Position numbers and translations under genes: made by a program
Notes under the pieces: generated by a model
What the model was told of the DNA's origin: nothing
Database searches by the model: none
What the model saw: only the letters and a program-made list of their open reading frames with translations
Assembly (NCBI GenBank): GCA_034189385.1
Contig: JAXHVD010000003.1
Span: 128,001 to 192,000 of the forward strand
Length of the DNA: 64,000 bases
Direction: 5' to 3'
DNA from: Thermodesulfobacteriota bacterium
Lineage (GTDB): Bacteria; Desulfobacterota; Desulfobacteria; Desulfobacterales; C00003060
Shown: positions 45,676 through 64,000 of the stretch, piece by piece
Layout: every line of letters starts with the position of its first letter
Numbering within the stretch: the first letter of the stretch is position 1

Positions 45676-47058
45676 CTACGCACGAGGGCCGATGTCCCCC
45701 TCAGAAAGAGACCCAATCCGGCGCACGTACGTCTCAATGTCAAACTTGCGCCGAAGCCCTGCGGCGTTCATATACCTGACCTTGCCGAAGACGGGGCGCT
45801 CAGACCAGGCCCGATCGTGTTTGCCCAAACACCACGCCACGCCGGCAAATCCGTTGGGGTCTCTTCCATCCAACTCGTACTTATTGTTCAAGTAGAGCGC
45901 CGTGCGAAAGGCTTCTTCCGGGGTTTTGCTCCACTCCAAGATCTTCTTTCCCCAGTACATCCGCATGTAGTTGTGCATCTTGCCCGTTATCACCATTTCC
46001 TGTTGCGCTGCGTTCCAGTATGGGTCGTGGGTGCGGGCCTGCTCCCACGCCTCCACATCGTATATGTACTCACGGTTGTCCTTTTCATGGGCCCTCAGGG
46101 TTTCTCTGGCCCAGCCCGGCAGTGCCTGGTACGCATCATAGTGCGGGTTGTAGTAAACAAAGTTCATGCTCAATTCTCGCCGCACGATCAGCTCTTCAAG
46201 GTACGCCTCTTTTGCTCCTTTTGGCTTGCCTCTTGCCCGGCGCACCTCGAGGCCAATCTCAACGGGAGAGATCTGCCCGAAATGGAGATACGGACTCATG
46301 TGTGAGCCATAGTCTGTACTGGGGTCGTTCCTGCGGTCCGCGTAGTATTTCAGCTTTTCCTTGATGAAGAGGTGGAGCAGCCCCATGGCCTCCTTTCTCC
46401 CGCCAGAGAAGGTCTCCACCGGAGAGACGCTTCGGTCCAGAGTGAGTCCACGGAGCGCCCCTTTCACGTCTTCCACATCCAGGCCCTCGTATGAAAGACC
46501 CAGGGAGTCTTTCTCCACAGGGGTTGATTTTAGGGAAACCAGATAGCGTTTCAGGTGCTTCTGAATCCGCGGCCGCAAGATGGCTGCAGTATAGGCCTCC
46601 TTTTCAGAAGCCACGGCAACAGGAACAACCACGTCGCTTTCCACTTGGACCACCAGACACGGGGCGTGGTCAGCCACGTGACGGCGCCACCCCTTCTGAA
46701 TCCTAAGATACCCCCTGTCGGTCACCACCATGGAGGCGTCTTTGGAAAACTGGACGGCTGCAAGCTCGGGCGAGTCACGAAGGGCTACAAACTGAATGCC
46801 CCGCTGGTAGAGTCCTTCATGAACCTCCCGGAGCCCCTGAAGCATAAAGGCGTAGTGTCTCTCATTGGCCTCAGGAAAACGGTCGGTGATGCCGAAAAGA
46901 ACGACGACCGGCCGCCTCAGTCCATTGGCTTGTCCGATGGCATACTCTAAGGCGTGGTTGAAGACCACTCTTTGAGAGGCCTGCATCCAGTAGAGGACAT
47001 AGCGCCCCTTTTGGATGGGGCGATCATTCAATGGTTCCACCCGTTCCCGTTGAATCAT
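45676..47058 (-). CDS. phr: Class II CPD DNA photolyase
   Basis: VLYWM...QR, SPYLHFGQIS, EEL.VRRELS.NF, GKMHNYMRMYWGKKILEW, DGRDPNG. Confidence 0.95.
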   Translation of the reverse strand: MIQRERVEPLNDRPIQKGRYVLYWMQASQRVVFNHALEYAIGQANGLRRPVVVLFGITDRFPEANERHYAFMLQGLREVHEGLYQRGIQFVALRDSPELAAVQFSKDASMVVTDRGYLRIQKGWRRHVADHAPCLVVQVESDVVVPVAVASEKEAYTAAILRPRIQKHLKRYLVSLKSTPVEKDSLGLSYEGLDVEDVKGALRGLTLDRSVSPVETFSGGRKEAMGLLHLFIKEKLKYYADRRNDPSTDYGSHMSPYLHFGQISPVEIGLEVRRARGKPKGAKEAYLEELIVRRELSMNFVYYNPHYDAYQALPGWARETLRAHEKDNREYIYDVEAWEQARTHDPYWNAAQQEMVITGKMHNYMRMYWGKKILEWSKTPEEAFRTALYLNNKYELDGRDPNGFAGVAWCLGKHDRAWSERPVFGKVRYMNAAGLRRKFDIETYVRRIGSLSEGDIGPRA

Positions 47059-47076
47059 GAGGCCCCCTGTCACGGA

Positions 47077-48630
47077 TCAGGACATCTTCTCTTGCAGACC
47101 TTTCGCCTGAGCGCGAATGGCCTGCTGCCTTTCTCTTGACAACCTGTCAAGGTTCCTAAACTGCAACCCCATTCGTGGGTTCTTTCTCAGGAACGTCTGG
47201 TGACGCATCAGGAAATCCCAATACAACGTGGTAAAGGGACAGGCAGCCTTAGACACCGCCTGCGATGGATCATAGGGACAAGCCGTGCAGTAATTGCTCA
47301 TGCGCTGAATGTATTTTCCCGTGGCCACGTAAGGCTTTGAAGCCATGATACCGCCGTCTGCAAACTGTGACATCCCCAGGGTGTTGGGCAGCTCCACCCA
47401 TTCCACGGCATCCACGTAGACCGCTAGATACCACTTGTGCACCTCTTGCGGCTTCACGCCCAAAAGGAGGGCAAAGAGGCCTGTCACCATCAATCTCTGG
47501 ATGTGATGGGCGTAACCGTACGAGAGGGTCTGCCCGATGGTCTCTCGAAGACAAAGCATGTCCGTCTCCCCAGTCCAATAAAACCGAGGCAACGGCGCCT
47601 GTGCATCTAACCGGTTCAGGTCTCCGTATTCCGGCATGAAGTGCCAGTATATCCCCCGAACGTATTCTCGCCATCCCAGAATCTGTCTGACGAAACCCTC
47701 TGCGGCATTCAACGGGGCGCGGCCCTCCTCATGGGCCCTTTCCGCTGCAGCCAAGACTTTTCTGGGATCGATCAGTTTCAGATTCAAGGAGGAAGACAGC
47801 CGCGAATGGAAGAGATAGGGACTGCCGGCCCACATGGCGTCCTGGTACAGCCCAAATGCGGGCAGGCGGTTTTCCACAAAGTCTGAAAGGGCTTGAGACG
47901 CCTGGCGTGGTGTCACGGGCCAGTCAAAATGTGCCAGACTCCCCGGGTGCCCCGAAAACCGTTTCTCTACAAGCTTCTTGACTTCTCGGGTGGTCTTGTC
48001 CGGCCGGAAGGATCTAGGTGGAGAGACTCTTCCCGGGCCTTCTTTACCGAATGGCTGCCGATTCTCTGCGTCGTAGTTCCATTTGCCTCCCAGGGGCCCA
48101 TCGCCGTCCATGAGGATGCCGGTTTTACGACGCATCTTTCGGTAAAAAAACTCCATTCTCAATTGCTTGCGCTCACCTGCATACTCAGAAAACGTCTGGC
48201 CTGTAGAAAAGAAGTGTCGATCCGACCGCATCTCTATGGGTAACCCTTTAGTCTTTGCCGCTTCCACCAGGGCCTGTTTCACCCTCCATTCCCCAGGCTC
48301 TGCCAGAATCAGCCTCTGGGGGTTGAGGCTTGCGATGGCGGCTTTCAGTGCCAACGAAAAGGTTTCGCGGTTCTCTGGACCGTCTAGCTGGCTGTAGTGG
48401 ACCGTCATACCCTTTCGCCGAAGGGCATCCCGAAAGTGCCTCATGGCGCTCAAAAATAGGGTGATGCGGGCCTTGTGTGACCATACATAGATGGATTCCT
48501 CTGGGATCTCCGCCATCCACACGGCATCATCAGCGGCATTGAATCCGTCAAAGGCCGAGGAGTCCGAATTGAGTTGATCGCCCAGCACCAAGATGAGATG
48601 GCGGGGCTTTTTGCGAGGATCGTAGGACAT
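47077..48630 (-). CDS. FeS-type bacterial cryptochrome/(6-4) photolyase (PhrB/CryB-like)
   Basis: LVLGDQL, GG.WNYD..NR, EGF.RQI.GWREY, GYAHHIQRLM, C-terminal YC..C...CPF cluster cysteines. Confidence 0.93.
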   Translation of the reverse strand: MSYDPRKKPRHLILVLGDQLNSDSSAFDGFNAADDAVWMAEIPEESIYVWSHKARITLFLSAMRHFRDALRRKGMTVHYSQLDGPENRETFSLALKAAIASLNPQRLILAEPGEWRVKQALVEAAKTKGLPIEMRSDRHFFSTGQTFSEYAGERKQLRMEFFYRKMRRKTGILMDGDGPLGGKWNYDAENRQPFGKEGPGRVSPPRSFRPDKTTREVKKLVEKRFSGHPGSLAHFDWPVTPRQASQALSDFVENRLPAFGLYQDAMWAGSPYLFHSRLSSSLNLKLIDPRKVLAAAERAHEEGRAPLNAAEGFVRQILGWREYVRGIYWHFMPEYGDLNRLDAQAPLPRFYWTGETDMLCLRETIGQTLSYGYAHHIQRLMVTGLFALLLGVKPQEVHKWYLAVYVDAVEWVELPNTLGMSQFADGGIMASKPYVATGKYIQRMSNYCTACPYDPSQAVSKAACPFTTLYWDFLMRHQTFLRKNPRMGLQFRNLDRLSRERQQAIRAQAKGLQEKMS

Positions 48631-49084
48631 GAAACCCGATCATTCTCTCAATCGTTGGTAACGTTCAAAACTTGCGGAAAAGGCCTTAAGCAGGCAGTTA
48701 GAGGGATAGGGATGATCGCTTAACGCAGGCATACAGCCATTGCCATCTGCACCAATGGCATAGGCTACCTAAAGGCATTGGATGCCGAAGAGACGTGATT
48801 ATCCCTATCCCGAAGTCGGTTGTCCAGAAATCCACTAAGTCAACACTTTTGAACGTTACTCAATCGTTGCTAAACAATGGTGCCCCAAGGGGCGGGGCCT
48901 ATCCTCTGTCCCACATACAAAGGCCCGTCTTTCAGGCACAGAATCAGCCCCTTCGTTTCCTTCTCCTAGTCGGTTGACACTGCAAACCAACTTATAGCAG
49001 AATATGACCAAGACAAACAGGGATGATGCCGCAAACGCGGGCGTGATTGGAAAGGCCAGGACCGGGATCTGGGGGTTTTTCGCC

Positions 49085-49570
49085 ATGAATACAGAATCGG
49101 ACGCTCAGACAGACCAATACGACAAGGAGCAAGGGCTGAAAGCGCGCCTTAAGGCCCTCTTTTCGTCTCAGAGATTTGCCGTTCTTGCCACGCAAAAAGA
49201 CGGTCAGCCATCTACCAACCTGGTGGCCTTTGCCGCCACAGATGATCTCAGGCAATTGCTCTTTGTTACCCCCCGGGCCACCCGCAAATTTGCCAACCTT
49301 GCCAGTGACGCCCACGTTGCTATCATGATAGACAACCGGCAAAACCTGGTTTCAGACCTCCGTGACGCCATGGCCGTCACGGCCACAGGGGCGGCTGAGG
49401 TGGTGGTGGGCCCTGAAAAAGAGGCCCTATTGGGGTTGTACCTCTCCAAACACCCGTTTTTGGAAACATTTGCAAGGGCCCCCTCTTGCGCTCTCTTGAA
49501 GATCTCCGTTAAGACCTACGACATTGCAGGAGCATTCCAAAACGTGATGGAGCTGAAGATGATGCCATGA
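49085..49570 (+). CDS. Pyridoxamine 5'-phosphate oxidase-like protein
   Basis: AVLAT..DGQP...LVAF, T.R.TRK..NL. Confidence 0.82.
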   Translation: MNTESDAQTDQYDKEQGLKARLKALFSSQRFAVLATQKDGQPSTNLVAFAATDDLRQLLFVTPRATRKFANLASDAHVAIMIDNRQNLVSDLRDAMAVTATGAAEVVVGPEKEALLGLYLSKHPFLETFARAPSCALLKISVKTYDIAGAFQNVMELKMMP

Positions 49571-51747
49571 GTCTCGTCCTCGCCCTTCATGAAATCCGTA
49601 ACGAGCACAGGCCTCTTGTAGGCGGAAAAGGCTTTGCCCTGGCTGCCCTGGTTCAAAGAACCATGGCAGTCCCGGAAGCCCTCTGTGTCACCACCCAAGC
49701 CTACCACCAGTACCTTTCCAGCGGAGGGCTTCGTGACCGGATCGGCATGGAATTGAACCGGAAACCCTTCCAGGAGATGAGGTGGGAAGAACTATGGGAT
49801 GCCGCTTTACGCGTCCAGAACCTCTTCCTGCAGACGCCTTTTTCCAAAGAGCTCTACGAGGCCATTTGTATGCCTATTGCCGAGATCTTTGGGGACAAAG
49901 CAGTAGTAGTGAGATCATCTGCCCTGGGAGAAGATACGGCCCAGAGTTCTTTTGCGGGTCTGCACGAATCGTACGTCAACGTCAGAGGCACAGAGGCTAT
50001 TTTGGACCACATACGGCTCGTTTGGGCCTCCCTCTGGTCGGACCGCGCCCTGCTGTATCGACAGGAATTGAACCTACAGGTTGAAAAGAGCGCCATGGCC
50101 GTGGTGATTCAGGAAATTCTAGTGGGAGAACGATCAGGTGTCGTCTTTGGCAAGGACCCCAACGATCCGTCACAGACGGTCATCGAGGCCGTGTATGGAT
50201 TGAATCAAGGGCTGGTCGATGGGACCGTCGAGCCTGACAGGTGGATTCTGGATCGCCAGAGCGGGCGGCTCATCTCTCATGTGCCTGCCAGCAGAAAAAA
50301 GGCTATGGTCCCTGTCCCCGGGGGCCTTCTCCTTGATGCATTGCAGCCTGACAAGGCCGATTGCCCACCCCTTGACCAGGAGGAGATGGCCAGGGTCTTT
50401 GAACTCTCACGGAAGACAGAAGAGGTCTTTGACGCTCCCCAAGACGTGGAGTGGACCTTTGGCAAAGATGTACTCTATGTCCTTCAGTCACGTCCTGTCG
50501 CGTCGCCCCTGTCAACGGCTCATGACGACAAGAGGCCATGGTATCTCAGCTTGAAGAAGAGCTTTGAAACCTTAAAGGGCCTTCGCAAGACGATCGAGGC
50601 CGAGTTGATACCGCAGATGCACCAAGAAGGGCGAACCCTTGCCGCGTCCGATCTGGATCAGCTATCAGACGTTGAGCTCGCAAAGGAAATCGAGCTCAGA
50701 AGAAGCATCTACCAGAAGTGGGCACGAATCTACGAAGAGGCGTTCATCCCCATGGCCCACGGCATTCGGCTCTTTGGGCAGGTTTATAACAACACGGTCC
50801 GCCCGTCAGATCCCTATGAATTCATGACCCTTCTGGGAGCCACGGAGATGGTCAGCCTCAGACGCAATGGCATGCTTGATGACCTGGCAGCAATGATCCG
50901 ATCGAACCCCAAGCTGGCGGAGCGCTTAAGAAACGGCGATCTCTCTGTTGATGATGACGCCTTCCATGCTGGCCTTCGAGATTTCGCAGACGAATTCACC
51001 GATCTGTCGTGCGGTACCGATCAATGCGTCAGTGGCCAACACGCCATCGCGAAGCTTCTCCTTGAAATGGCCGGTCGTCCCTCTCTGAGACAGGCTGTTC
51101 CAAAGAAGGACTTCCAGGGCCTTAAGGATGCGTTCTTGTCTCGTTTTCAGGCCAATCAACGCTCCTATGCTGAAGAGCTTCTTGATCTTGGACGGGCCAG
51201 CTACCGCTTGAGAGATGATGACAATATCTACTTAGGCCAGGTCAGAGCTCAAATGGACCGAGCAGTGAGCGAGGGACGGAATCGGGTAAAAAGCACAAAC
51301 AAGACAGAGGGTCGTGCGTCCGCCGCCCACAGCCTTGCAAAGGCCTTAAAGACCCACGACCTTCTCTTTCAGACCCACCTCTCACCTGTTTCTGAAAAAG
51401 CAGGGCTTCAAACCACGGTCAGGCAAATCGTGGGACAACCGGCAGGACCTGGAATTGGAAAAGGCCCGGCGCGGGTGATTGCTGACCCGTCTGATTTGAT
51501 GGATTTTCAAGCCGGAGAGATCCTGGTATGCGATGCACTGGATCCAACCATGACCTTTGTCGTCCCTCTGTCAGAAGGAATCGTGGAACGCCGGGGCGGC
51601 ATGTTGATCCACGGCGCCATTATTGCCAGAGAATACGGGCTCCCATGCGTTACCGGGATCCCTGAAGCGGCCTCGGTCATCAAGAACGGTGAGCAACTTA
51701 CTGTCGATGGCTATCTGGGCATTGTCACCATCCATCGTGAAGCATAA
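49567..51747 (+). CDS. PEP-synthase/PPDK-type phosphotransferase (N-terminal ATP-grasp + C-terminal His swivel; rifampin-phosphotransferase-like architecture)
   Basis: VGGKG, VRSSA..ED....SFAG, QDVEW, LQSRP; GG...HGAIIAREYG.P.V. Confidence 0.88.
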   Translation: MSLVLALHEIRNEHRPLVGGKGFALAALVQRTMAVPEALCVTTQAYHQYLSSGGLRDRIGMELNRKPFQEMRWEELWDAALRVQNLFLQTPFSKELYEAICMPIAEIFGDKAVVVRSSALGEDTAQSSFAGLHESYVNVRGTEAILDHIRLVWASLWSDRALLYRQELNLQVEKSAMAVVIQEILVGERSGVVFGKDPNDPSQTVIEAVYGLNQGLVDGTVEPDRWILDRQSGRLISHVPASRKKAMVPVPGGLLLDALQPDKADCPPLDQEEMARVFELSRKTEEVFDAPQDVEWTFGKDVLYVLQSRPVASPLSTAHDDKRPWYLSLKKSFETLKGLRKTIEAELIPQMHQEGRTLAASDLDQLSDVELAKEIELRRSIYQKWARIYEEAFIPMAHGIRLFGQVYNNTVRPSDPYEFMTLLGATEMVSLRRNGMLDDLAAMIRSNPKLAERLRNGDLSVDDDAFHAGLRDFADEFTDLSCGTDQCVSGQHAIAKLLLEMAGRPSLRQAVPKKDFQGLKDAFLSRFQANQRSYAEELLDLGRASYRLRDDDNIYLGQVRAQMDRAVSEGRNRVKSTNKTEGRASAAHSLAKALKTHDLLFQTHLSPVSEKAGLQTTVRQIVGQPAGPGIGKGPARVIADPSDLMDFQAGEILVCDALDPTMTFVVPLSEGIVERRGGMLIHGAIIAREYGLPCVTGIPEAASVIKNGEQLTVDGYLGIVTIHREA

Positions 51748-53818: not shown

Positions 53819-55051
53819 TCAACGAGAGGCCGCATCGCTTTTAAAGGCATCGACGTTCTCTATGTGCGCTTCTTCCTCGGTGATGGTCGTAAGGGGCGGA
53901 TCATCAGCGATATCCATCCCCGGCACGTAATCAAAGACTCCCGTAAGCTCCCTGTTTACCATCTGGTAGAGCCTGGTCAGGGGAATTTCCATAGGACACA
54001 CATCTTGACACTGCCCGCAATTGACACAGGAGTCTGCCACATGAGCCAATCTGATTAAAGGAAACATGATATGGGGCGGCGTTTCTCCAGCTTGCACAAG
54101 ATCTCTTGATGGCTCCAGGTAACAGTCCTGACAGTAACAGATGGGACACACATCCCTGCAACCAAAGCACTTGATGCACCTGTCAAGATATCTTAGCCAG
54201 TATTGCAATCGATCCTCGTAGGGAAGCCATCTTAGGACATCCAGGTCCTTTTCTTGCCAGGTCTGGGCCAATTCAACGGCCTCTTGGTCTTCTTGTTCCC
54301 TTTCCTTTAAGGCTTCCTGATCAGGCGGCTCCGCGTGAAGGGCACCCGCTTCCAAGGCCTCTTCCATCAGGTTGGAGCCTTTCTCCGAGCATACTTCTAT
54401 GAACGTAGCCTGTTGGCCCTTTGTGCCCCACTTGCCACAAGCCAGATCAGCCATCCGAGGAATATTGAAGGCGCACCGCCTACAATTTTCTCTTCTGCCA
54501 TATCCCTGTTCCTCTAGCTCCTTTAGATCCCTTTCTTTTTTGCTCCCATCTGCGAGCGTGATGACAAGTTTTTTTGAATCAAGCTCCTCGCCCACCACGT
54601 CCTCAGGGTTGACCTGATATGCCTCTGAAATCATTCTTCTGGCAACGCCTGGCATCAATGTGCCCGTGCAGTTCAGGCCTATTAAGAGGAGATTCTCGGT
54701 ATTGATTTGTCTCCTTTTCGCTAGCTCTATGATGGCACGGCAGTCACAGGGCTTGCAGGTCACTGCCACCTTCAGGTCTTGGGCACCGTTTAGATACTCC
54801 CTTATCTCTTTGGCTACATTCACTGGAGCAACGTGCAGGGTCCCAGCACAGGTGATGACTTCGTCGGGATTCGATATGAGAGACACCACTCCATCATATC
54901 TGTTTCCATCTCTTTTTCGGACCGCCAATACGGCATCTACAATCTTACGCTCAAGGGCAAACTTCAGCAACGCAGTGACTGCACCACCTGATGCGCCCTT
55001 AGACCGAATTTGCTCGTCAGTGGACCAAGCAAGATACATGTCGCCTTTCAT
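53819..55051 (-). CDS. fdhB: Formate dehydrogenase beta subunit, F420-reducing FrhB/FdhB family with C-terminal 2[4Fe-4S]
   Basis: GASGGAVTALL, KPCD.RAI.EL, IGLNC.G, RR.NCRRC, AD.ACG.WG, CIKCFGC...CP.CYC, CVNCGQC.DVCP. Confidence 0.88.
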   Translation of the reverse strand: MKGDMYLAWSTDEQIRSKGASGGAVTALLKFALERKIVDAVLAVRKRDGNRYDGVVSLISNPDEVITCAGTLHVAPVNVAKEIREYLNGAQDLKVAVTCKPCDCRAIIELAKRRQINTENLLLIGLNCTGTLMPGVARRMISEAYQVNPEDVVGEELDSKKLVITLADGSKKERDLKELEEQGYGRRENCRRCAFNIPRMADLACGKWGTKGQQATFIEVCSEKGSNLMEEALEAGALHAEPPDQEALKEREQEDQEAVELAQTWQEKDLDVLRWLPYEDRLQYWLRYLDRCIKCFGCRDVCPICYCQDCYLEPSRDLVQAGETPPHIMFPLIRLAHVADSCVNCGQCQDVCPMEIPLTRLYQMVNRELTGVFDYVPGMDIADDPPLTTITEEEAHIENVDAFKSDAASR

Positions 55052-57081
55052 TATGATACCTTCTCTACCTTCACTGCACAGAACTTGAACTCCGGCATCT
55101 TAGACGGAGGGCCTGCACAGGGTCCTGTCAAGACGTTTGGTGCGCATTCTGAAAAATGCCAAGGCACAAATATCAGGCCTTTCCTAATGTCTTCTGTTAC
55201 CCTAGCCACTGTCTCTATCGTGCCTCTTCTGGATGTTAATCTCACCTGGTCTCCGTCTTGTATGGAGAGGGCCTGGGCATCTTCAGGGTTTATCTCTGCA
55301 AATCCATGGGGCAGCTCATTGTTCAGGCGCCCAGTTCGTCTGGTCATGGTGCCTGAATGAAAATGGAATATCACCCTGCCATTTGTGAATATGTAAGGAT
55401 ACTCCTCATCTGGCACCTCCAAAGGGGGAGTGTATTCTGCAACCTGGAATTGTGCAAGACCGTCTGCGGTGGGGAATTTGCCAACAAACATGACCTCCGT
55501 CCCAGGATGATCCTCTGTGGGGCATGGCCATTGAATGCCGCTGGGATTTTTGAGCCTTTCATAGGTAATCCCCTTGTATTGAGGCACACATTTCCTGATT
55601 TCCTCAAAAATATCAGCCGGGCTCTGAAAACCAAAGGCCGCCTCAAAACCCATCCTCTTTCCCAATTCACAGAAAATGTCCCAATCCGGTCTTGCATCAC
55701 CCGGCGGCGCCACGGCCTTGTAGAGCCTCTGAACCCTTCTATCTACCCCGGTCATGGTCCCGTCCTTTTCCACGGACGTCGCTGCAGGGAGCACAATGTC
55801 AGCCATTTTTGCCGTTTCTGTCATAAAGATATCCTGGACGACCAAGAAATCTTTGCTTTTCAGGGCCTGCCTGACGCTTGTCGTATCTGGCGCAGCCGAC
55901 ATGGGATTCGCCCCCACGATGTATAAGACTCTGCATTTTCCCACCATGTCCATGTAAGTCATTCCAGGGGTTGAAGGCAGATCCTTGACTCCCCAGAGGT
56001 CTTCAAAACGCCTGGCTGTTTCCTCATTCACCTTTTGAAATCCAGGGTAGAAAACTGGCAAGGGCCCCATGTCCCCAAAGCCCTCACCATTGGCATGACC
56101 CCTCAGGGGGTTTACGCCAGTACCCGGCCTTCCATAGTTTCCCGTCATGAGTGCCAAGTCCACCAAAGCCCTGATGTTCTCTATGCCTGCACCATGCTGG
56201 GCAATGCCTGCATTGTATAAGATACAGGCTTTTTCGGCCTTCCCGTACATGAGTGCCGCCTCTTTGATCACATCAAGGGGGATCTCCGTGATGCGCTCTA
56301 TTTCACGCAGATCCAGACTCTGCAAATAGCTCTTCAGGTCCTCAAATCCTTTTGTCCTCTCTTCTATGAACCCTTTATCCTCTAGCCCCTCATCCAAGAT
56401 GAGCTTCATCATGCCGTTGACCAGGGCATTGTCCGTCGCAGGGTAGATCTGCAAGTACAGGTCTGCAAGGTTTCGAGCCGTGATCGTCCTTCGGGGATCT
56501 GCAACGATCACCTTGGCCCCTTTACGCTTTGCCCGTATGATCCTGCGGGCAATGATGGGATAGGTTTCCTGGAGGTTGGGACCGGCCACAAAGATGCAAT
56601 CCGCCTGCTCAATACTGATAGTGGACGTTGGCATCACGCCTGAGCCCACTGTGGAAAGCAAGGCGGGCACTGAGGTAGAATGGCAGAACCTGGAGGCATT
56701 ATCCATGTTGTTTGTCTTCTTAACGACCCTGACAAACTTCTGAATGACATAGAGATCTTCGTTTGTACACTTTGCAGAATTGATGAAGCCCACCTCATCG
56801 GAAGCCGTGCTGCCCAATTTGTCTGCGATCACCGAAAGGGCAGCATCCCAGGAGGTCTCCGCAAAGACACCGTCTCGTTTTACTAACGGCCTTACCAGCC
56901 TTTGATCACTCGTTGAACAGGCATGGGCGTTTCTTCCTTTCTGGCAGTTTTTGCCCTCACATACGGGATGCCCCTTCCACGGCTCCATGCCCACCAACTC
57001 GCCGTCTTTTACTACCAAGTAGATGCCACATCCGCAGCCGCAGTAAGGGCAAATAGTCGGTACGTGTTCAATGGATGTCAT
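55051..57081 (-). CDS. fdhA: Mo/W-bisPGD formate dehydrogenase alpha subunit (Cys form, cytoplasmic, no Tat signal)
   Basis: TICPYCGCGC...C.KG, DNASRF-C-H, PLRG, VVQDIF.TETA..AD..LP, PEFK.CAV. Confidence 0.85.
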   Translation of the reverse strand: MTSIEHVPTICPYCGCGCGIYLVVKDGELVGMEPWKGHPVCEGKNCQKGRNAHACSTSDQRLVRPLVKRDGVFAETSWDAALSVIADKLGSTASDEVGFINSAKCTNEDLYVIQKFVRVVKKTNNMDNASRFCHSTSVPALLSTVGSGVMPTSTISIEQADCIFVAGPNLQETYPIIARRIIRAKRKGAKVIVADPRRTITARNLADLYLQIYPATDNALVNGMMKLILDEGLEDKGFIEERTKGFEDLKSYLQSLDLREIERITEIPLDVIKEAALMYGKAEKACILYNAGIAQHGAGIENIRALVDLALMTGNYGRPGTGVNPLRGHANGEGFGDMGPLPVFYPGFQKVNEETARRFEDLWGVKDLPSTPGMTYMDMVGKCRVLYIVGANPMSAAPDTTSVRQALKSKDFLVVQDIFMTETAKMADIVLPAATSVEKDGTMTGVDRRVQRLYKAVAPPGDARPDWDIFCELGKRMGFEAAFGFQSPADIFEEIRKCVPQYKGITYERLKNPSGIQWPCPTEDHPGTEVMFVGKFPTADGLAQFQVAEYTPPLEVPDEEYPYIFTNGRVIFHFHSGTMTRRTGRLNNELPHGFAEINPEDAQALSIQDGDQVRLTSRRGTIETVARVTEDIRKGLIFVPWHFSECAPNVLTGPCAGPPSKMPEFKFCAVKVEKVS

Positions 57082-57514
57082 GAGCGCCTTCTCTCTCTAT
57101 CCTTTGTGACAGAGGGTTTGGTCCAATGCCTCTTGCCTCTTCTACAAAGTCCCTGACCAATTGCGCAAATTGCGGACCCTCCGATGCGGATACCCAGGCC
57201 AGGCGCAATCTGGCCGGATCGATACCCACACATTCCAGCAATTTCTTCGTCATCAAGACCCGTCTTCTTACGTGCAGATTACCTTCCAGGTAATGACATT
57301 CACCCGGATGTCATCCCCCCACAAGCACGGCATCTATGCCCTGAGTCAGTGCCTCCAAAATCATGACAGGATCAATTCTCCCAGTACACATGACCCGGAT
57401 CACCCGGATGTTGGGGGGATATTGGAACCTGGAAACGCCAGCCAGATCGGCTCCGGCGTAAGAACACCAGTTGCACAGAAAGGCTATTAATTTGGGTTCA
57501 AATGAACTTGACAT
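57068..57514 (-). CDS. mvhD: Selenocysteine-containing MvhD ([2Fe-2S] Hdr adaptor)
   Basis: [25 protein letters not shown](TGA 57311-57313)-HPGECHY..GN, W.SASEG; hairpin ATTACCT-gga-AGGTAAT at 57278-57294. Confidence 0.92.
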
Positions 57515-57619
57515 TGTCAGAAACCCCCGTCTTTCTCCTAAGGCCATGTAGAATAGGCTGAAAGGTGGACCTTGAAGAAGGGAACGTTTTTTCTGCTGCT
57601 TTTGGATTTCAGCTTTTCT

Positions 57620-60600
57620 CTAAACAACAGCATGAATTTGTGCCCTGATTTGATGTTGACTAAAATGACACATATCAACGGCTTTTGACGGACAGCTCGC
57701 AGCACAAAGGCCGCAACCCTTACAGGATGCAGTAATGTTTTCAGCCTTCATTTCACCATGAAGCTCCACTAGGTGGATGGCATCGAAGGGACACACCCTT
57801 TCACAGATGCCGCATCCATTGCACATATCCGTATTCACCACAGATACAATGGGCTCGATCTCCACTGCATCTTTCATTAAGATATTTGCAGCCCGGGCAG
57901 CAGCGGCTTTGGCCTGGGCAATAGACTCCTCAATCGGTTTAGGATATTGACAAAGCCCTGCCAAGAACAGGCCTTGAGTGGCAAAATCAACGGGCCTGAG
58001 CTTCATATGGGCCTCCAAGAAGAAGCCTTCTTCGGTGGTGGACACTTTATAGAGTTTGGAAAGGGCCATGTTGTCATTTGGTAAAATGGCAGTGGCAAGG
58101 CAGATCATGTCTGGAAGGATTTCAAGGGGTCTTTGCAACACGTGGTCCGTAATCCTCAGCTTGAGTCTGCCATTTTTCCTCTCAACCGTAGGTTCATTTC
58201 CCAGGTTGTAGCGAATGAACAGCACGCCTTTGGCTCTGGCCTCTGTGTACAACTCCTCCCTGTCCCCAAAGGTCCTGATATCCCGATAGAGGATATATAT
58301 ACGCATATGGGGATTGAGCCGTTTCAGGGCCAACGCACTGACCATAGAATGGGTGCAGCAAACCTTACTACAATAGGGTCTTTCAGGTATTCTGGATCCT
58401 ACGCACTGGATGAAGACAACGCTCTTGGCGTTGCTGATCCGTTTACTACGGCCCACGATCTCTTGATCAAGTTCCAGGGGCAGCAATACATCTGGGTCTC
58501 TTCCATATAGATATTCCCTGGGCTTATAGGGTTTGCCGCCAGTCGTCATGATGACTGCCCCGTGCTGCAATTCTGTCTCTTTGCCCTCCTCGTCAAGGAG
58601 CGTGGAGGAAAACCCTCCCACAAAACCAGAGGCGTCCTTGATGGTTGTCCGAAGCCAAAGAGTGATCAATGGATGCTCACGGACCTTTTTGATGAGGTCT
58701 TCTACATAAGCCCTTATATCTTCGCCTTTATAGGTGGTGTCAAGATGGAGGGCCTGACCGCCCAGTCTATTCTCTTTTTCGACGAGATCGGTCTTGAACC
58801 CTTGCTCAGCCAGACTTAAAGCGCTCACCATGCCTGCCACGCCCCCACCGATCACCAACCCCTGGTGGTTGACCGGTACAGATATGTCCGCCAGCGGCCT
58901 GATGAGCCTTGCCTTGGCCACAGCCATTCTGACGAGGTCTTTGGCCTTTTTGGTAGCTGCATCCGGCTGTTCCATGTGGACCCAGGAGCATTGATCACGG
59001 ATATTTGCCATCTCAAAGGTGTATTTATTCAAACCGGCCTCGCGGAGTGTTTCTCTAAACAGGGGCTCATGGGTCCTTGGCGTGCAGGAGGCAACGACCA
59101 CCCGGTTAAGGTCATATTCTTTGATGTGTTCCCTTATCCTGTTTTGGGTATCCTGGGAGCAGGTGAAAAGATTTCTATCTGCTACGACGACATTGGGAAG
59201 GGTCCGCGCATATTCAGTGACTTCAGGGACGTTGACCACGCCCCCAATATTGATCCCTCAATGGCAAACAAAGACGCCTATGCGCGGTTCCTGACCAAGG
59301 ATCTCTTTTTCAACAGGATACTCCTTTTTCTTCACCAGCGTATTTCTTGCCGGCGCCAGGAGGCCCATGGCAGAATCGGCTGCAGCACTCGCCTCCATGA
59401 CCGTACCTGGGATGTCCTTTGGTCCTTGAAATGCTCCGCACACATAGACCCCTGGCCTTGAAGTCTCTACAGGAGAAAGGCACTGCGTCTTTGCAAAAAG
59501 GTGGTTATCCAGCTCTATATGGAGCCGCTCAGCCAAAGCTTCAGCCTTGGCAGGAGGCATGAGGCCAATGGAAAGGACCACCATGTCAAATACTTCCTCT
59601 TTCCTCTCGCCTGTTTCACTGGCATAGACCAGCTTGAGGTCCCCACTGTCTGCCACGGGCTCTATGGAGTGTATCCTTGACCTGATAAACCGGACACCAA
59701 ATTCATCCTTGGCCCGGTTATAGTACTTCTCAAAATCTTTGCCGTAGGTCCGCATATCCATGAAGAAGATGGCTGTATCTAATGGCAACGAGCTGTGTTC
59801 CTTGGAAATGACGGCCTCTTTGATGGCGTACATGCAGCACACAGCAGAGCAGTACCCTTGGTCACATTGGTTTATATTCCTTGAACCCACACATTGAAGC
59901 CAAGCGATCTTTTTCGGTTCTTTTTCGTCAGACGGGCGCACAAGGTGGGCCTTGTAAGGACCGGAGGCACTCAGAATACGCTCGAATTCCATGCTCGTGA
60001 CCACGTTGGGAAAGCGGCCATGCTGATAGAGATCATCGCCTGAAGGATCGTATGGCTCAAAACCTGGGGCCAGGATGATGGACCCAACATTTAGTTCGAC
60101 TGTTTCATCTTCTTGAGAGTGATCGATGGCATCAGCAGCGCAAAACGCAGTACATATCTTGCATCCACCGGTCTTGAAGTGCATGCAGTATTCACGGTCG
60201 ATTGCCGGCGCCTTTGGCACGGCCTGAGGATAGGGGATGTACACCGGTTTTCGTCCGATAAGCCCCATGTCATACTCAGAGGGAATAGGTTCAACGGTAT
60301 GTTTGGTAATATCTTTTAGCTTGATGTGGCCAGTGGGACAAACCGACGCGCAAGCTCCGCAGGCCATACACAGTTCGGTCTGAATATGGAAAGGGGTATC
60401 CACTCTCATATCCACACCCCTGCCGGTCAGGGTGATGGCACTGTTTCCCATCCTCTCGCAAACACGGACACAAAGACCGCAGAGGATGCAATCATCGTCC
60501 CTCTTCTTAAACCGCGGTTCCTTGATCCCATATCGCGCTGCCAGCTCCTTGACCGTAGGCACGTTCGGACAACGAGCAAGGAGGAGTTCCACGATCAGTT

Positions 60601-60856
60601 TTCGCCCCTCATGGACTGCATCGGTCTCCGTGCGAACCTCCATCCCTTCCTTGATGGGGTAGTTACATGCCGTGACGAAATTGGTCTTACGGCCATCAAA
60701 AACCTCCACCGTACAAAGACGACACATCCCCGCAGGCCCAAGGGCCTTATGGTAGCATAAGGTGGGAATCTCGACCCCGTATCGTTCGGCCACCTGAAGG
60801 ATGTATTCTCCTTCTTCTCCCTGGACGTCTTTTCCATTCAGCTTAAAATGTACCAT
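57620..60856 (-). CDS. hdrA: Fusion of NuoG/HydA N-terminal FeS domains to a tandem HdrA-like flavoprotein; contains Sec
   Basis: IPTLCY..CRLC.VE..ACN [2Fe-2S], CILCGLCVRVC, then HdrA body (EFERILSA, QCVGSR, YCS.VCCMYAIK); IGVFVCH-U(TGA 59258-59260)-GINIGG in frame with 57620-59239 (C.PRTHE, NIRDQC.W.H, GGG.AG, EAH.KLRPVD, C-terminal ferredoxin); hairpin at 59226-59244. Confidence 0.88.
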
Positions 60857-60976
60857 GGATTACTCCCTGTTAACGCGCTGTTGCCCAAATCGCTTTTCGC
60901 TTTGGCTAAAACCTTTTTTGACAAATCTAAAGCTCACTCCAGGCGATGTCAAAACTCGCCCTTTTGGCTCTGCAAC

Positions 60977-62878
60977 TCATTCTATACAGATGGCGTTGAA
61001 CTTACAGGCATTGTAACAGATGCCGCACTTGATGCATTTCTCCTGGTCTATGTGATGGCATTTCTTCTTTTCACCGGTGATGGCCTCCTGCGGACATTTG
61101 AGTGCGCAGAGATGACAGCCGTTACACAGAGCTTCATCAACTTCGTAATGAAAAAGGGCCTTGCAGACACCTGCGGGGCACTTCTGATCCTTGATGTGGG
61201 CCTCGTACTCATCTCGGAAATAGAGGAGCGTCGTTAACACCGGATTGGGGGCTGTTTTGCCTAGTCCGCACAGGGAAAACCTCTTGATCATGGCAGCCAG
61301 CTCCTGAAGGAGTCTGATGTCGCCCTCCCGGCCCTTTCCCTCGCAGATATCACCCAGGATTTCTGCCATCTGGGTAATCCCTTCACGGCAGGGCGTGCAT
61401 TGACCACATGATTCGTTCTTGAGAAAATCCAGGAAGTATTTTGCAATGTTGACCATGCAGGTGTCCTGGTCCATGACGATCATACCGCCCGAGCCCATGA
61501 TCGAGCCAAGCTCGCTGAGCTTCTGGTAGTCTACCGGGGTATCGAGGTACTGTTCAGGGATGCAGCCACCGGAAGGCCCCCCTGTCTGAACAGCCTTGAA
61601 TGCCTTTTTCTTCGGAATGCCGCCGCCTATATCAAAGACGATCTCTCGCAAGGAAATGCCCATGGGGACTTCTACCAAGCCGGTATTTTTCACCTTCCCC
61701 ACGAGGCTAAAGACCTTCGTCCCTTTGCTGTGCTCCGTGCCGATGTTGCCGTACCACTGGGCACCCTTTAAGAGGATCACCGGGACATTGGCATAGGTCT
61801 CAACGTTATTCAGGTTGGTTGGTTTTTCCCTGAACCCTTTTTCCACAGTATGCACATATTTGGCCCTGGGTCTTCCCACTTGACCTTCCAACGAAGCCAT
61901 CAAGGCCGTTGATTCACCACAAATAAAGGCCCCTGCCCCAGTGGAGATCTTGATGCGGAAACCAAAATCAGTCCCCCCTATATGGTCACCAAGCAACCCA
62001 TAGGCCTCTGCCTGCTTGATGGCTGTGACCAGGCGCTTAACCGCCAACGGGTATTCATGCCGCACATAAATGAAGCCTTGATGGGAGCCAATGGCCCGTG
62101 CTGCAATCAACATCCCTTCCAGGACACTGTGGGGGTCGCCTTCCAGAATACTCCTATCCATGTAGGCGCCCGGGTCGCCTTCATCGGCATTGCAGATGAT
62201 ATATCTCTCACCCTTCAGTCTTGCACAACTTTCCCATTTTATTCCTGTTGGAAAGCCAGCACCACCGCGACCCCTTAACCCCGATTCCTTGATGGTCTTA
62301 ATAATCTCAGGGGGGTCGCCTTCCAACAGGCATCGCATAAAGGCTAGGTACCCGCCTTTGGCGATGTACTCTTCGATGCTATCGGGGTCAATATAGCCAC
62401 AATTGCGCAAGGCGATTTTTGTCTGTTTACTGTAAAAGGGGACATCCTCCAAGAAGGGGATCCCCTCGATGGGTGCTGTCTCGGCAAGGGGGTTTTCCAT
62501 GTCTTCTTCTAATAGGGAACGAGGATCGCGCATTTGGGCTAGGATCCACTTTTTATTGAAATCGCCTTGGATGTAGCCTTCAATGGCGTCTAGGATCTTC
62601 TCCTTGGAAAGGTGCCTGTAAACCACTCTCGGCCGCCCCTTTCCGAAGATTTCGACCAAGGGTTCTTCCTGACAGAAACCCAGACAACCGGTCTTGTGGA
62701 TCTCAATGCCAGGGTCCTCTGGAAATGCCTCTAAGGCCTTTTCAAAGGAGGCCTTTGCACCGGCTGCGATGCCACAGGAGGCCATTCCTATGTTCACCGC
62801 GATGCCTTCTGGGTGGTATAGCCTGTTGCTGTAGTCCTGCCTGATCTCTTCCAGGTCTTTAATAGACCCCACTTGCAT
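60977..62878 (-). CDS. nuoF: NuoF/HydB-like flavin (FMN)/NAD(P)H-binding subunit, long form
   Basis: N-terminal thioredoxin-like [2Fe-2S] region, GLRGRGGAGFPTG, CNADEGDPGA, ESCGQC.PCR, C-terminal 2x CxxCxxCxxxC; start refined to ATG 62878. Confidence 0.92.
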   Translation of the reverse strand: MQVGSIKDLEEIRQDYSNRLYHPEGIAVNIGMASCGIAAGAKASFEKALEAFPEDPGIEIHKTGCLGFCQEEPLVEIFGKGRPRVVYRHLSKEKILDAIEGYIQGDFNKKWILAQMRDPRSLLEEDMENPLAETAPIEGIPFLEDVPFYSKQTKIALRNCGYIDPDSIEEYIAKGGYLAFMRCLLEGDPPEIIKTIKESGLRGRGGAGFPTGIKWESCARLKGERYIICNADEGDPGAYMDRSILEGDPHSVLEGMLIAARAIGSHQGFIYVRHEYPLAVKRLVTAIKQAEAYGLLGDHIGGTDFGFRIKISTGAGAFICGESTALMASLEGQVGRPRAKYVHTVEKGFREKPTNLNNVETYANVPVILLKGAQWYGNIGTEHSKGTKVFSLVGKVKNTGLVEVPMGISLREIVFDIGGGIPKKKAFKAVQTGGPSGGCIPEQYLDTPVDYQKLSELGSIMGSGGMIVMDQDTCMVNIAKYFLDFLKNESCGQCTPCREGITQMAEILGDICEGKGREGDIRLLQELAAMIKRFSLCGLGKTAPNPVLTTLLYFRDEYEAHIKDQKCPAGVCKALFHYEVDEALCNGCHLCALKCPQEAITGEKKKCHHIDQEKCIKCGICYNACKFNAICIE

Positions 62879-62891
62879 CGCCTGAAACCCC

Positions 62892-63389
62892 TTAGTGATA
62901 TTCATCCAACACCTTTTGTATGTTTTCCTGGCTGACCCGGCTATAGACGTCTTCATTGATCTTGACGACTGGTCCAAGACTACAGCATCCAATGCAGCGC
63001 ACAGGCTCGAGAGTGAAGCGCATATCTTCCGTTGTTTCTCTGGCGCCCACATGGAGAATCTCCTGGATCCTTTCCCACAGCCTTGCCCCGCCCCTTACAT
63101 GGCAGGCCGTCCCCAGACAGACAGAGATGATGTTTCTGCCTTTGGGGACCAGACTGAAGCTGCTGTAGAACGTACCGACAGCATAGATGAGACTGATCGG
63201 CACCCCTATCTTCTCAGAAAGATAGGTCAAAGATGCCTGGGGCAAGTGGTTATACTGACGCTGAATGGCCTGGAGAATCATGATAAGATTCTCTTTGTCG
63301 TCGTGGAATTCCTCATCTATGATCCGATCAAGTTCCATGTAATCGATCTCAACGGTTTGCTCCATCGTAGATAGCGCTATGTCAGTCAT
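62892..63389 (-). CDS. nuoE: NuoE/HydC-like [2Fe-2S] subunit
   Basis: TFY..F, VCLGTACHV.G, V.C.GCCSLGP. Confidence 0.92.
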   Translation of the reverse strand: MTDIALSTMEQTVEIDYMELDRIIDEEFHDDKENLIMILQAIQRQYNHLPQASLTYLSEKIGVPISLIYAVGTFYSSFSLVPKGRNIISVCLGTACHVRGGARLWERIQEILHVGARETTEDMRFTLEPVRCIGCCSLGPVVKINEDVYSRVSQENIQKVLDEYH

Positions 63390-63620
63390 ATAGGTGTCTC
63401 CCTCACAGGAAAAAGGTCTATTCCCTAGGTGTTGAGAATAATTAGAAATGGCGTACTCGAGGGTGGACTGCAGGTTATTGAAAACTCACCCCTGGCTCCA
63501 TGGATAACGAGCAACAGGAAGGCCTATTTGTTTTCCGTGCACTTCTCTTTCCAAGACTCCGATACGCCATACGCGACGTTTGCCCGTTGGCGAGTCCTTG
63601 TGGACTCGCAACACCAAGAC

Positions 63621-64000
63621 TTATCCATCCATAACCGCTTGATTGGTCACCGGGCAGTTCTCCACACAAAGGCCGCACCCAATACAACGGCTCAAGTCGA
63701 TACTCCGGGCGCGCTTCTTCACCTTTACTCTGAAATTGCCAGCAGAGCCATCCACCGATTCGATGTCGGCATAGGTGATGATTTCGATATTCAGGTGGCG
63801 ACCGCATTCCACCAACTTTGGCGACATGATACACATGGAACAGTCATTGGTGGGGTATGTCTTATCTAGTTGGGACATCTTGCCGCCAATGGCTGGCGTA
63901 TCTTCAAGTAGATAGACATAAAAGCCAGCATCGGCGAGATCAAGGGCAGCTTGGATGCCACCGATGCCACCACCTACCACCAACACGGCACCGACTTTGT
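63621..64000 (-). CDS. hdrA: Stand-alone N-terminal segment of HdrA (FAD Rossmann motif + one ferredoxin motif); 5' end outside the window
   Basis: KVGAVLVVGGGIGG.QAALDLA, IGG.M.QLDKT.PTNDCSMCI..PKL, CIGCGLCVENCP, then a stop after 9 further residues. Confidence 0.88.
   Translation of the reverse strand, partial: KVGAVLVVGGGIGGIQAALDLADAGFYVYLLEDTPAIGGKMSQLDKTYPTNDCSMCIMSPKLVECGRHLNIEIITYADIESVDGSAGNFRVKVKKRARSIDLSRCIGCGLCVENCPVTNQAVMDG

Follow-up and report, generated by a model that had tools for sequence, protein, structure and literature searches.

What becomes of the flavin enzyme HdrA when its gene is split by a set of nuoEFG-like genes, and in which order would electrons pass through the product? 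The question is raised by a seven-gene operon at the end of a 64,000-nucleotide stretch of DNA from a marine, sulfate-reducing Thermodesulfobacteriota bacterium (the window; contig JAXHVD010000003.1, positions 128,001 to 192,000), all of it on the minus strand and in the order hdrA N-terminal fragment (hereafter the head), nuoE, nuoF, nuoG-N::hdrA (the body), mvhD, fdhA and fdhB. This order and these gene labels, proposed in an initial annotation of the window, agree with Pfam and NCBIfam assignments (Table 1). The split HdrA with its Bfu cassette is a real and conserved arrangement, apparently undescribed in the literature searched, although its modules and the insertion site were already known. 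We put at roughly 0.55 the probability that the seven genes specify a soluble complex in which two bifurcation modules, HdrA and then Bfu, act one after the other.

A Bfu cassette inside HdrA's ferredoxin domain

Aligned to solved HdrA (5ODC), the head corresponds to residues 146-259 and the HdrA part of the body to residues from ~260 onward, with no residues missing between them. The inserted ferredoxin domain has two CxxCxxCxxxC motifs; the head stops directly behind the first of them, and the body opens with 185 residues of NuoG-N before resuming HdrA, including the second ferredoxin motif. By alignment, the HdrA is thus a tandem one of BamE type, and the bfuCBA cassette interrupts its inserted ferredoxin domain. 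The head also carries the FAD-binding GxGxxG motif and C61/C64, equivalent to C194/C197 of 5ODC, which are invariant in 30 aligned rows and by inference correspond to C59/C62 of BamE; Cys197 of 5ODC, the equivalent of C64, ligates the N-terminal cluster of the partner unit (PMC9012536). Because the FAD domain, the two ferredoxin clusters and the Cys197-type ligand are divided between chains, head and body must reassemble, and with one motif per chain in a 2[4Fe-4S] fold, the ferredoxin-domain clusters would need cysteines from both. Natural re-fusion occurs in two genomes of the genus (L044, L045), where head, BfuA and body form a single 1228-aa chain. Many Desulfobacterales heads (L047-L052, L060, L080-L090) have an in-frame TGA at the Cys197 equivalent (motif DCAMU), placing selenocysteine (Sec) on the head there and on the body (CHUG) in the window; by alignment, the two are ligands of the same cluster.

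The two HdrA units are not equivalent. Unit 1 retains E292 and K346 (E356 and K409 of 5ODC) together with an intact [4Fe-4S] motif facing HdrC (C322/C336/C340/C341), and we take E356 as a second marker of bifurcating HdrA. A Lys near the FAD N5 marks the bifurcating HdrA site in class II benzoyl-CoA reductase (BCRII; bioRxiv 10.64898/2026.04.10.717634), so that unit 1 bears both sequence marks of a bifurcating HdrA, the Lys and the adjacent [4Fe-4S] motif. Unit 2, which the initial annotation had described as a full HdrA domain, keeps the N-terminal domain with Sec533; it has neither an inserted ferredoxin domain nor the Cys197 motif, and V839 stands in place of the bifurcating Lys. Judged on these residues, the pattern is that of BamE, where the FAD of unit 1 is bifurcating and has the Lys, and that of unit 2 does not bifurcate.

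The inserted genes have the domains described for BfuABC (Schut 2022, PMC9304861): FMN-binding, SLBB, NADH_4Fe-4S and ferredoxin domains in BfuB (nuoF), a [2Fe-2S] site in BfuC (nuoE), and 2Fe-2S plus 4Fe-4S sites in BfuA (nuoG-N), the SLBB match being weak (E 1.3e-4, below its cut-off). BfuB comprises an N-terminal thioredoxin-like domain, an FMN/NAD site, B1, a B2/Zn site (ligands C439, C474, H561, C567 and C572 against C438, C476, H525, C531 and C536 in the reference) and a C-terminal 2x[4Fe-4S] part with two CxxCxxCxxxC motifs for B3/B4. At the B5 site, its thioredoxin-like domain has C35, C65 and C69, as in the alignment to 9BOV_B, and these would suit either [2Fe-2S] or Zn. The BfuA part is Type 2-like, with one [2Fe-2S] and two [4Fe-4S] motifs and without the His-ligated A3 motif, and its model superposes on BfuA of Wor-Bfu (9MQX_A), the root-mean-square deviation being 1.6 A over 180 columns. 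On this domain and motif evidence, we assign the NuoEFG part to the bifurcating BfuCBA (HydCBA-type) modules, with coupled reduction of NAD+ and ferredoxin as its predicted activity.

One might suspect an hdrA that is broken or wrongly assembled and merely lies beside an unrelated nuoEFG operon, given the 231-base gap between the head and nuoE, and given relatives in which nuoG::hdrA lies ~10 kb from nuoF or is frameshifted (L051, L052, L054). This explanation is refuted. All genes tested are under purifying selection (pairwise dN/dS 0.04-0.14 over six operon genes, all but mvhD), and the split is no artefact, since dN/dS of the head is ~0.04 and the head stops after the same motif in 42/42 heads found by motif among the 55 fusion loci introduced below. 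The break point is identical across phyla, fused forms exist, the junction region is matched by 2295 of 8000 scored database proteins (E<=1e-60), and a contig from a second study also covers the head stop and the gap that follows.

Table 1. Features of the split-HdrA/Bfu operon, in window positions
Feature	Position	Strand	Basis
hdrA head, 133 aa	63621-64022 (start codon 22 bases past window end)	-	aligns to 5ODC 146-259
nuoE-like / BfuC, 165 aa, [2Fe-2S] C1	62892..63389	-	PF01257
nuoF-like / BfuB (HydB-type), 633 aa	60977..62878	-	best solved matches 7T2R_B, 9BOV_B, 8OH5_B
nuoG-N::hdrA, 1078 aa, in-frame TGA at codon 533	57620-60856	-	open reading frame read through one TGA
BfuA/NuoG-N domain, aa 1-185 of the 1078-aa protein	60302..60856	-	cluster motifs; superposition on 9MQX_A
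Rest of HdrA unit 1, aa 186-515	59312..60301	-	alignment to 5ODC
HdrA unit 2: N-terminal domain with Sec533, second FAD domain, C-terminal 2x[4Fe-4S]	57620..59311	-	alignment, motifs
Sec533, in-frame TGA, motif CHUG	59258..59260	-	aligned to 5ODC Cys; TGA kept in L078
mvhD, 148 aa, Sec68 in GGUHPGEC (TGA 57311-57313)	57068..57514	-	PF02662; TGA equally placed in relatives
fdhA, 676 aa	55051..57081	-	TIGR01591, 771 bits (cut-off 666)
fdhB, 410 aa, methanogen (FrhB) type with polyferredoxin part	53819..55051	-	FrhB_FdhB domains; 7BKB_E, E 2e-117

The two Sec residues counted in the initial annotation are present, and since FdhA is a Cys enzyme, they lie in HdrA (Sec533) and MvhD (Sec68). A tRNA-Sec gene was found in the source genome; the hairpins that follow the Sec codons (-21.7, -18.8) do not exceed in strength those behind two genuine TGA stops (-18.3, -21.4). 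For nuoF, a longer reading frame in the original list was rejected, its start having been placed too early. Promoter and terminator scans of the region returned chance-level counts (11 vs 10.1; 13 vs 12.7); within them, the region's top sigma-70-like match (TTGACA-17-TAGATT, 10/12) falls in the nuoF/nuoG::hdrA gap at 60860-60975, which is also matched by other contigs with loose ends and could be an internal promoter or a repeat. Upstream of the operon lie unrelated genes (a radical SAM gene, a tRNA-Thr editing domain, a zinc-ribbon protein and an ion channel). Downstream, at 45676-51747, are photolyase-like and DPRP genes and a PEP-synthase-like gene beside one with a pyridoxamine-oxidase fold. 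A downstream CBS gene was rejected as a member of the complex, no such gene following fdhB in L078.

Distribution and interchangeable partners

An alignment-based scan of GTDB recovered loci where a scan with a single sequence gave no matches; the counts below describe a sample, namely the best 80 of 451 matches. An in-frame BfuA::HdrA fusion is present in 55/80 loci, the other 25 having free BfuA or other arrangements. The BfuA/HdrA junction is also spanned in 18/41 related genomes (twice in the source genome), in 26 of the top 150 database representatives at 50% identity, and in at least 8/301 genomes of a phylum sample for which 7 candidates were scored per genome. By record titles, fusion loci occur in Desulfobacterota, Planctomycetota, Spirochaetota, Acidobacteriota, Chloroflexota, Ignavibacteria, Fibrobacterota, Bacillota and others, as well as in the archaeal Thermoplasmata and Altiarchaeales. 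The head lies upstream of nuoE in 47/55 loci, fused to NuoE in 25 of these 47, and the remaining 8 have no nuoE match in the locus. Since the insert occurs in tandem as well as single HdrAs, and unsplit HdrAs branch within groups of split ones (all trees here are from FastTree only), repeated gain, loss or exchange at one site is suggested by the sequences. In two loci (L053, L087), nuoF and nuoG::hdrA have no head or nuoE match upstream, the head being perhaps elsewhere or lost. In another (L178:1-6011), the HdrA ferredoxin site that elsewhere takes Bfu holds an Fdh cassette, in which a Sec-FdhA is flanked by the halves of FdhB, and this HdrA nests within the Bfu-split Desulfobacterales clade.

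What follows mvhD varies across the 55 loci: NiFe-hydrogenase-like genes in 16 (one without a detected mvhD), Flx-like genes in 10, MetV(F)-like genes in 3 and FdhA in 3 (L078, L123, L129), the rest being cut or other. The names Flx, MetVF and MvhGA are our assignments from sequence pattern, the FlxA-like domain set being the one confirmed in Pfam. The split-HdrA/Bfu core is thus a general module, and Fdh a minority choice among at least four interchangeable partners. Co-occurrence of the window's genes, on which the initial annotation made its reading depend, is conserved, with all seven in L078 and six, nuoE to fdhB, in L042, whose contig ends in nuoE; in a further genome (G008) the window version is spread across the ends of two contigs. 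Among the best 80 of 451 matches, the named relative nearest to the locus is the Desulfobacteraceae metagenome-assembled genome Eth-SRB2 (87%), and a 70%-identical protein is named from the cultured Desulfatirhabdium butyrativorans.

Proposed electron routes and competing wirings

The initial annotation had proposed that a pyridine-nucleotide module replaces the heterodisulfide arm. This is not supported: the module is inserted in the ferredoxin domain, the low-potential arm of HdrA (PMC9012536, Fig. 7 legend), the cluster motif that feeds HdrC is intact, and hdrC and/or hdrB precede the split gene in most informative loci. The reported absence of hdrBC from the operon stands, with none in the window and none in 6 kb upstream beyond position 64000; HdrB and HdrC subunits are encoded elsewhere in the source genome, and the nearest CCG-domain gene on the contig is ~145 kb away. 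Excluding 19 uninformative fusion loci (11 near a contig edge, 8 without a head), hdrC and/or hdrB occur within 3.5 kb upstream of the head in 26/36, both in 18, hdrC only in 6 and hdrB only in 2, and a paralog in the source genome on contig C62 has hdrC-hdrB directly before its head. The layout hdrC-hdrB-head-nuoE-nuoF-nuoG::hdrA-mvhD-mvhG-mvhA is a full Hdr-hydrogenase with Bfu on its ferredoxin exit; self-contained loci of this kind include L104, L117 and L118. The unit-1 Lys is present in 53/53 loci that reach it, and a unit-2 Lys in 20/28 tandem loci.

The window operon would either recruit HdrCB in trans or work differently. Candidate partners in the source genome are the HdrCB of C62 and a membrane NarI::HdrC plus HdrB pair on contig C23, the contig of the window; in L043 and L090, homologs of this pair with 46-58% identity stand directly before the split gene. 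At the C62 locus (L009:9312-13001, L002:38-19608), hdrC, hdrB, the head, nuoE and a nuoF fused to a GltD/NfnB-like domain are followed by ~10 kb of regulators and other genes, then by nuoG::hdrA, metVF-like genes and further HdrA/MvhD pieces. On C23 (L010:4139-13164), an ordinary Sec-Fdh-Bfu operon lies by FBPase, HdrB, the NarI::HdrC membrane fusion and CODH/ACS genes. In three other loci (L099, L110, L131), metV(F)-like genes lie by an hdrA head and a single hdrC-like gene, and no hdrB was detected; there, HdrC may link the high-potential arm to methylene-tetrahydrofolate (THF) reductase.

From this anatomy, and from solved HdrABC-MvhD-FdhAB and BCRII, we infer the assembly, direction, acceptor and stoichiometry of a complex working as follows. 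By homology, FdhAB and MvhD provide the mid-potential input, while electrons leave at high potential by the C322 cluster and at low potential by the inserted ferredoxin (PMC9012536; BCRII preprint). Formate, or another FdhA substrate, would give electrons to FdhA, and these would reach the unit-1 FAD by way of FdhB, the C-terminal HdrA ferredoxin and MvhD. Of each pair, one electron would leave via the high-potential C322 cluster to HdrC/HdrB encoded elsewhere, and on to DsrC, a disulfide or menaquinone. The other would take the inserted ferredoxin to BfuA, with BfuBC splitting again between NAD+ and ferredoxin; Bfu would receive low-potential electrons because the inserted ferredoxin is the low-potential exit. 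For every 8 electrons, 4 would thus reach the high-potential acceptor, 2 NADH and 2 ferredoxin.

With potentials of -280 mV for NAD, -500 mV for ferredoxin and -140 mV for the acceptor (PMC9304861), the computed mean acceptor potential is ~-265 mV, compared with -320 mV for HdrABC alone and -390 mV for Bfu alone. Computed donor potentials are -266 mV for H2 at 1 Pa and ~-321 mV for 10 uM formate with 10 mM bicarbonate, the latter from a standard value of -410 mV. With a mean acceptor potential near -265 mV, even a dilute donor could still yield reduced ferredoxin.

Several observations weigh against this two-stage model. Both hdrB and hdrC are missing in 10/36 informative loci, 6 of them in Desulfobacterota and including the nearest relatives; the Arg-region motif of FdhA is changed and the protein falls in a separate clade; FdhB has an F420 site without a known substrate in the host; window-type FdhA occurs in 4/37 genomes of the genus, so that the complete Fdh version is rare; and the model of the natural fused chain has low confidence across the junction of BfuA insert and ferredoxin domain, where a mixed alignment misplaced columns. 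In the AlphaFold model of body residues 1-515, residues 191-215 fall below pLDDT 50.

The missing hdrBC, in the window operon and L078 as among the 10/36 loci, could mean that the complex is self-sufficient, HdrA acting as a wire or gate between Fdh and Bfu, with the Bfu site alone bifurcating from formate to NAD+ and ferredoxin. Formate is indeed a standard third substrate of Bfu (PMC9304861), and HdrA loci without hdrBC are common in Desulfobacterium autotrophicum. We nevertheless consider this unlikely: the Lys and the HdrC-facing cluster motif are retained whether or not a locus has hdrBC, a crossed-potential FAD would be expected to stall if it had no high-potential sink, and the simpler Sec-Fdh-Bfu operon already exists on C23. 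The same simpler enzyme speaks against running the proposed wiring in reverse, with NADH and reduced ferredoxin entering via Bfu to merge at HdrA with thiol or DsrC electrons, and CO2 being reduced to formate, which would supply the Wood-Ljungdahl pathway or vent electrons. The source genome (90% complete) does encode CODH/ACS and formate-THF ligase besides DsrC and Rnf, a similar role has been proposed for HdrL-FdhAB in Desulfurivibrio, and Bfu is an input in BCRII (BCRII preprint). Formate would, however, have to stay extremely low, since the merged electrons at ~-265 mV lie far above CO2/formate (-420 mV standard), and we regard reverse flow as the more improbable of these two wirings.

If the two-stage core is accepted, the substrate of FdhA has still to be considered. 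FdhA retains the Cys133-His134 pair, Arg327 and the N-terminal [4Fe-4S] motif, scores above the TIGR01591 cut-off, and has methanogen FdhA (9T1S_L, 7BKB_D) as best solved matches; FdhB is likewise nearest to methanogen enzymes. The FdhA motif is RGHANGEG, however, and not the RGQNNVQG of solved methanogen FdhA and canonical homologs. This xNGE(G) replacement of QNNVQG after the Arg occurs in 116/120 close homologs, and 16 RGHxNGEG-type FdhAs separate from 19 canonical sequences with SH-like support of 100 (a mis-framed row, L159, was left out of the tree). Named members of the clade include ANME-1, Freyrarchaeum, Syntrophobacteria and Asgard proteins. Among the matches listed, a metagenome scan returned mostly canonical FdhA on short contigs. 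A non-catalytic FdhA-like subunit, or one acting on another substrate, on a core otherwise as modelled would fit the altered motif, the separate clade with its ANME-1 and Asgard proteins, and published Hdr-linked FdhA homologs of unknown or lost function. This seems improbable given the retained catalytic residues and cluster motif; identity with the published non-catalytic ANME-2/Methanolobus Molybdop clade was rejected, as that clade lacks the Cys kept here. Formate is the likely substrate on sequence grounds, and likely only, because FdhA sits in the divergent RGHxNGEG clade.

The F420 genes PF01996 (CofE) and PF01933 (CofD) were not found in the 90%-complete source genome, and FdhB is therefore probably an electron wire. 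Outside split-HdrA operons, mvhD precedes fdhA in 8/10 loci of this FdhA type (L158-L165, L236, L237), and the pair has neither an hdrA nor a bfu gene upstream of it in L163 and L164. This recurrence makes mvhD-fdhA-fdhB look like a mobile unit.

Relation to known complexes and significance

The initial interpretation is partly supported: the sequence agrees with a complex of several flavins in which HdrA and MvhD are joined by a HydABC/Bfu-type NAD/ferredoxin module and by FdhAB of the methanogen type, and the resemblance to the Bam complex that it noted extends to the BamE-type tandem HdrA, Sec-containing MvhD-like adaptor and HydBC-type module. BCRII of Geobacter metallireducens (BamDEFGHI part; bioRxiv 10.64898/2026.04.10.717634) shares the tandem HdrA with a Lys-bearing bifurcating FAD in unit 1 and a non-bifurcating unit 2, the CxxC beside the flavin, the Sec-containing MvhD-like adaptor and a HydBC-type module in the complex. 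There, however, BamGHI come from separate genes and deliver electrons to the mid-potential input (C-terminal ferredoxin, BamF), with BamBC served by the inserted ferredoxin, whereas in the window BfuA lies in the inserted ferredoxin, HdrA is split, Fdh takes the MvhD port, and the operon has no BamD/HdrBC or BamB. Membership in BCRII was rejected on the position of BfuA and because no AOR-family or HdrD-like gene lies in or adjoins the operon.

The methanogen FdhAB-MvhD-HdrABC complex (7BKB, 9T1S; Elp-Hdr 8RVU) supplies the best solved matches for FdhA, FrhB-type FdhB, MvhD and HdrA. It has an intact HdrA homodimer with HdrBC and reduces free ferredoxin or Fwd; in the window, HdrA is tandem and split and carries Bfu, with no hdrBC in the operon and no F420 genes found. 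In HdrL, or type III HdrA, a GltD- or NfnB-like NAD(P)H module occupies the same ferredoxin domain (PMC2702500, PMC9012536, PMC12054007), hdrA/hdrL-mvhD-fdhB-fdhA loci without Bfu have been published for Desulfobacterium autotrophicum, and two bifurcation sites have been suggested for HdrA-NfnB. That insert is one domain in one chain, whereas in the window three genes make up a Bfu cassette, which interrupts hdrA and has a ferredoxin site of its own (B3/B4). The window gene was rejected as an HdrL, its insert at this same site being NuoG-N/BfuA and not GltD/NfnB-like. Type 2 Bfu enzymes (Wor-Bfu 9MQX, Fdh-Bfu; PMC9304861) share the BfuBC core and a BfuA with A1, A2 and A4 and without A3. As far as the accessible text of that survey extends, no type has BfuA fused into HdrA, and Bam-Bfu is the sole HdrA-linked type named; the text of its supplement gave no match for Hdr, figures and probably Table S1 lying outside that search. 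We found no description of a Bfu cassette splitting hdrA in the accessible parts of the literature searched, including PMC12142623, PMC6085437, PMC5736913, PMC6295475, PMC11201294, PMC10553843, PMC11829005, PMC11237513, PMC13343851 with its supplement, and bioRxiv 2024.09.26.615249, figure-only supplements lying outside this search.

Taken together, we tentatively propose a broader picture, which as a joint claim we hold less firmly than the model of the operon itself. The ferredoxin loop of HdrA may be a plug-in socket, and the split-HdrA/Bfu core a widespread two-stage cascade across many bacterial phyla and archaea, with HdrA first and Bfu second, the reverse of BCRII. With it, anaerobes could reduce ferredoxin from donors as weak as ~-265 mV, such as H2 in traces, formate at micromolar levels, NADH (via Flx) and perhaps methyl-THF (via MetVF), and its Fdh version would pair a new FdhA clade with a borrowed membrane HdrCB leading to quinone or DsrC.

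All parts of this system belong to known families. According to the BCRII preprint, two distinct bifurcation modules in one complex had not previously been reported; the split-HdrA/Bfu arrangement would be a second, much commoner way of joining the same two modules, with the opposite wiring. The natural split gives separable halves for work on the HdrA mechanism, namely the CxxC/Sec relay and the low-potential exit. If the model is true, it would provide an explanation, open to experiment, of the way in which sulfate reducers and other anaerobes short of energy come by low-potential ferredoxin when H2 or formate is very scarce.

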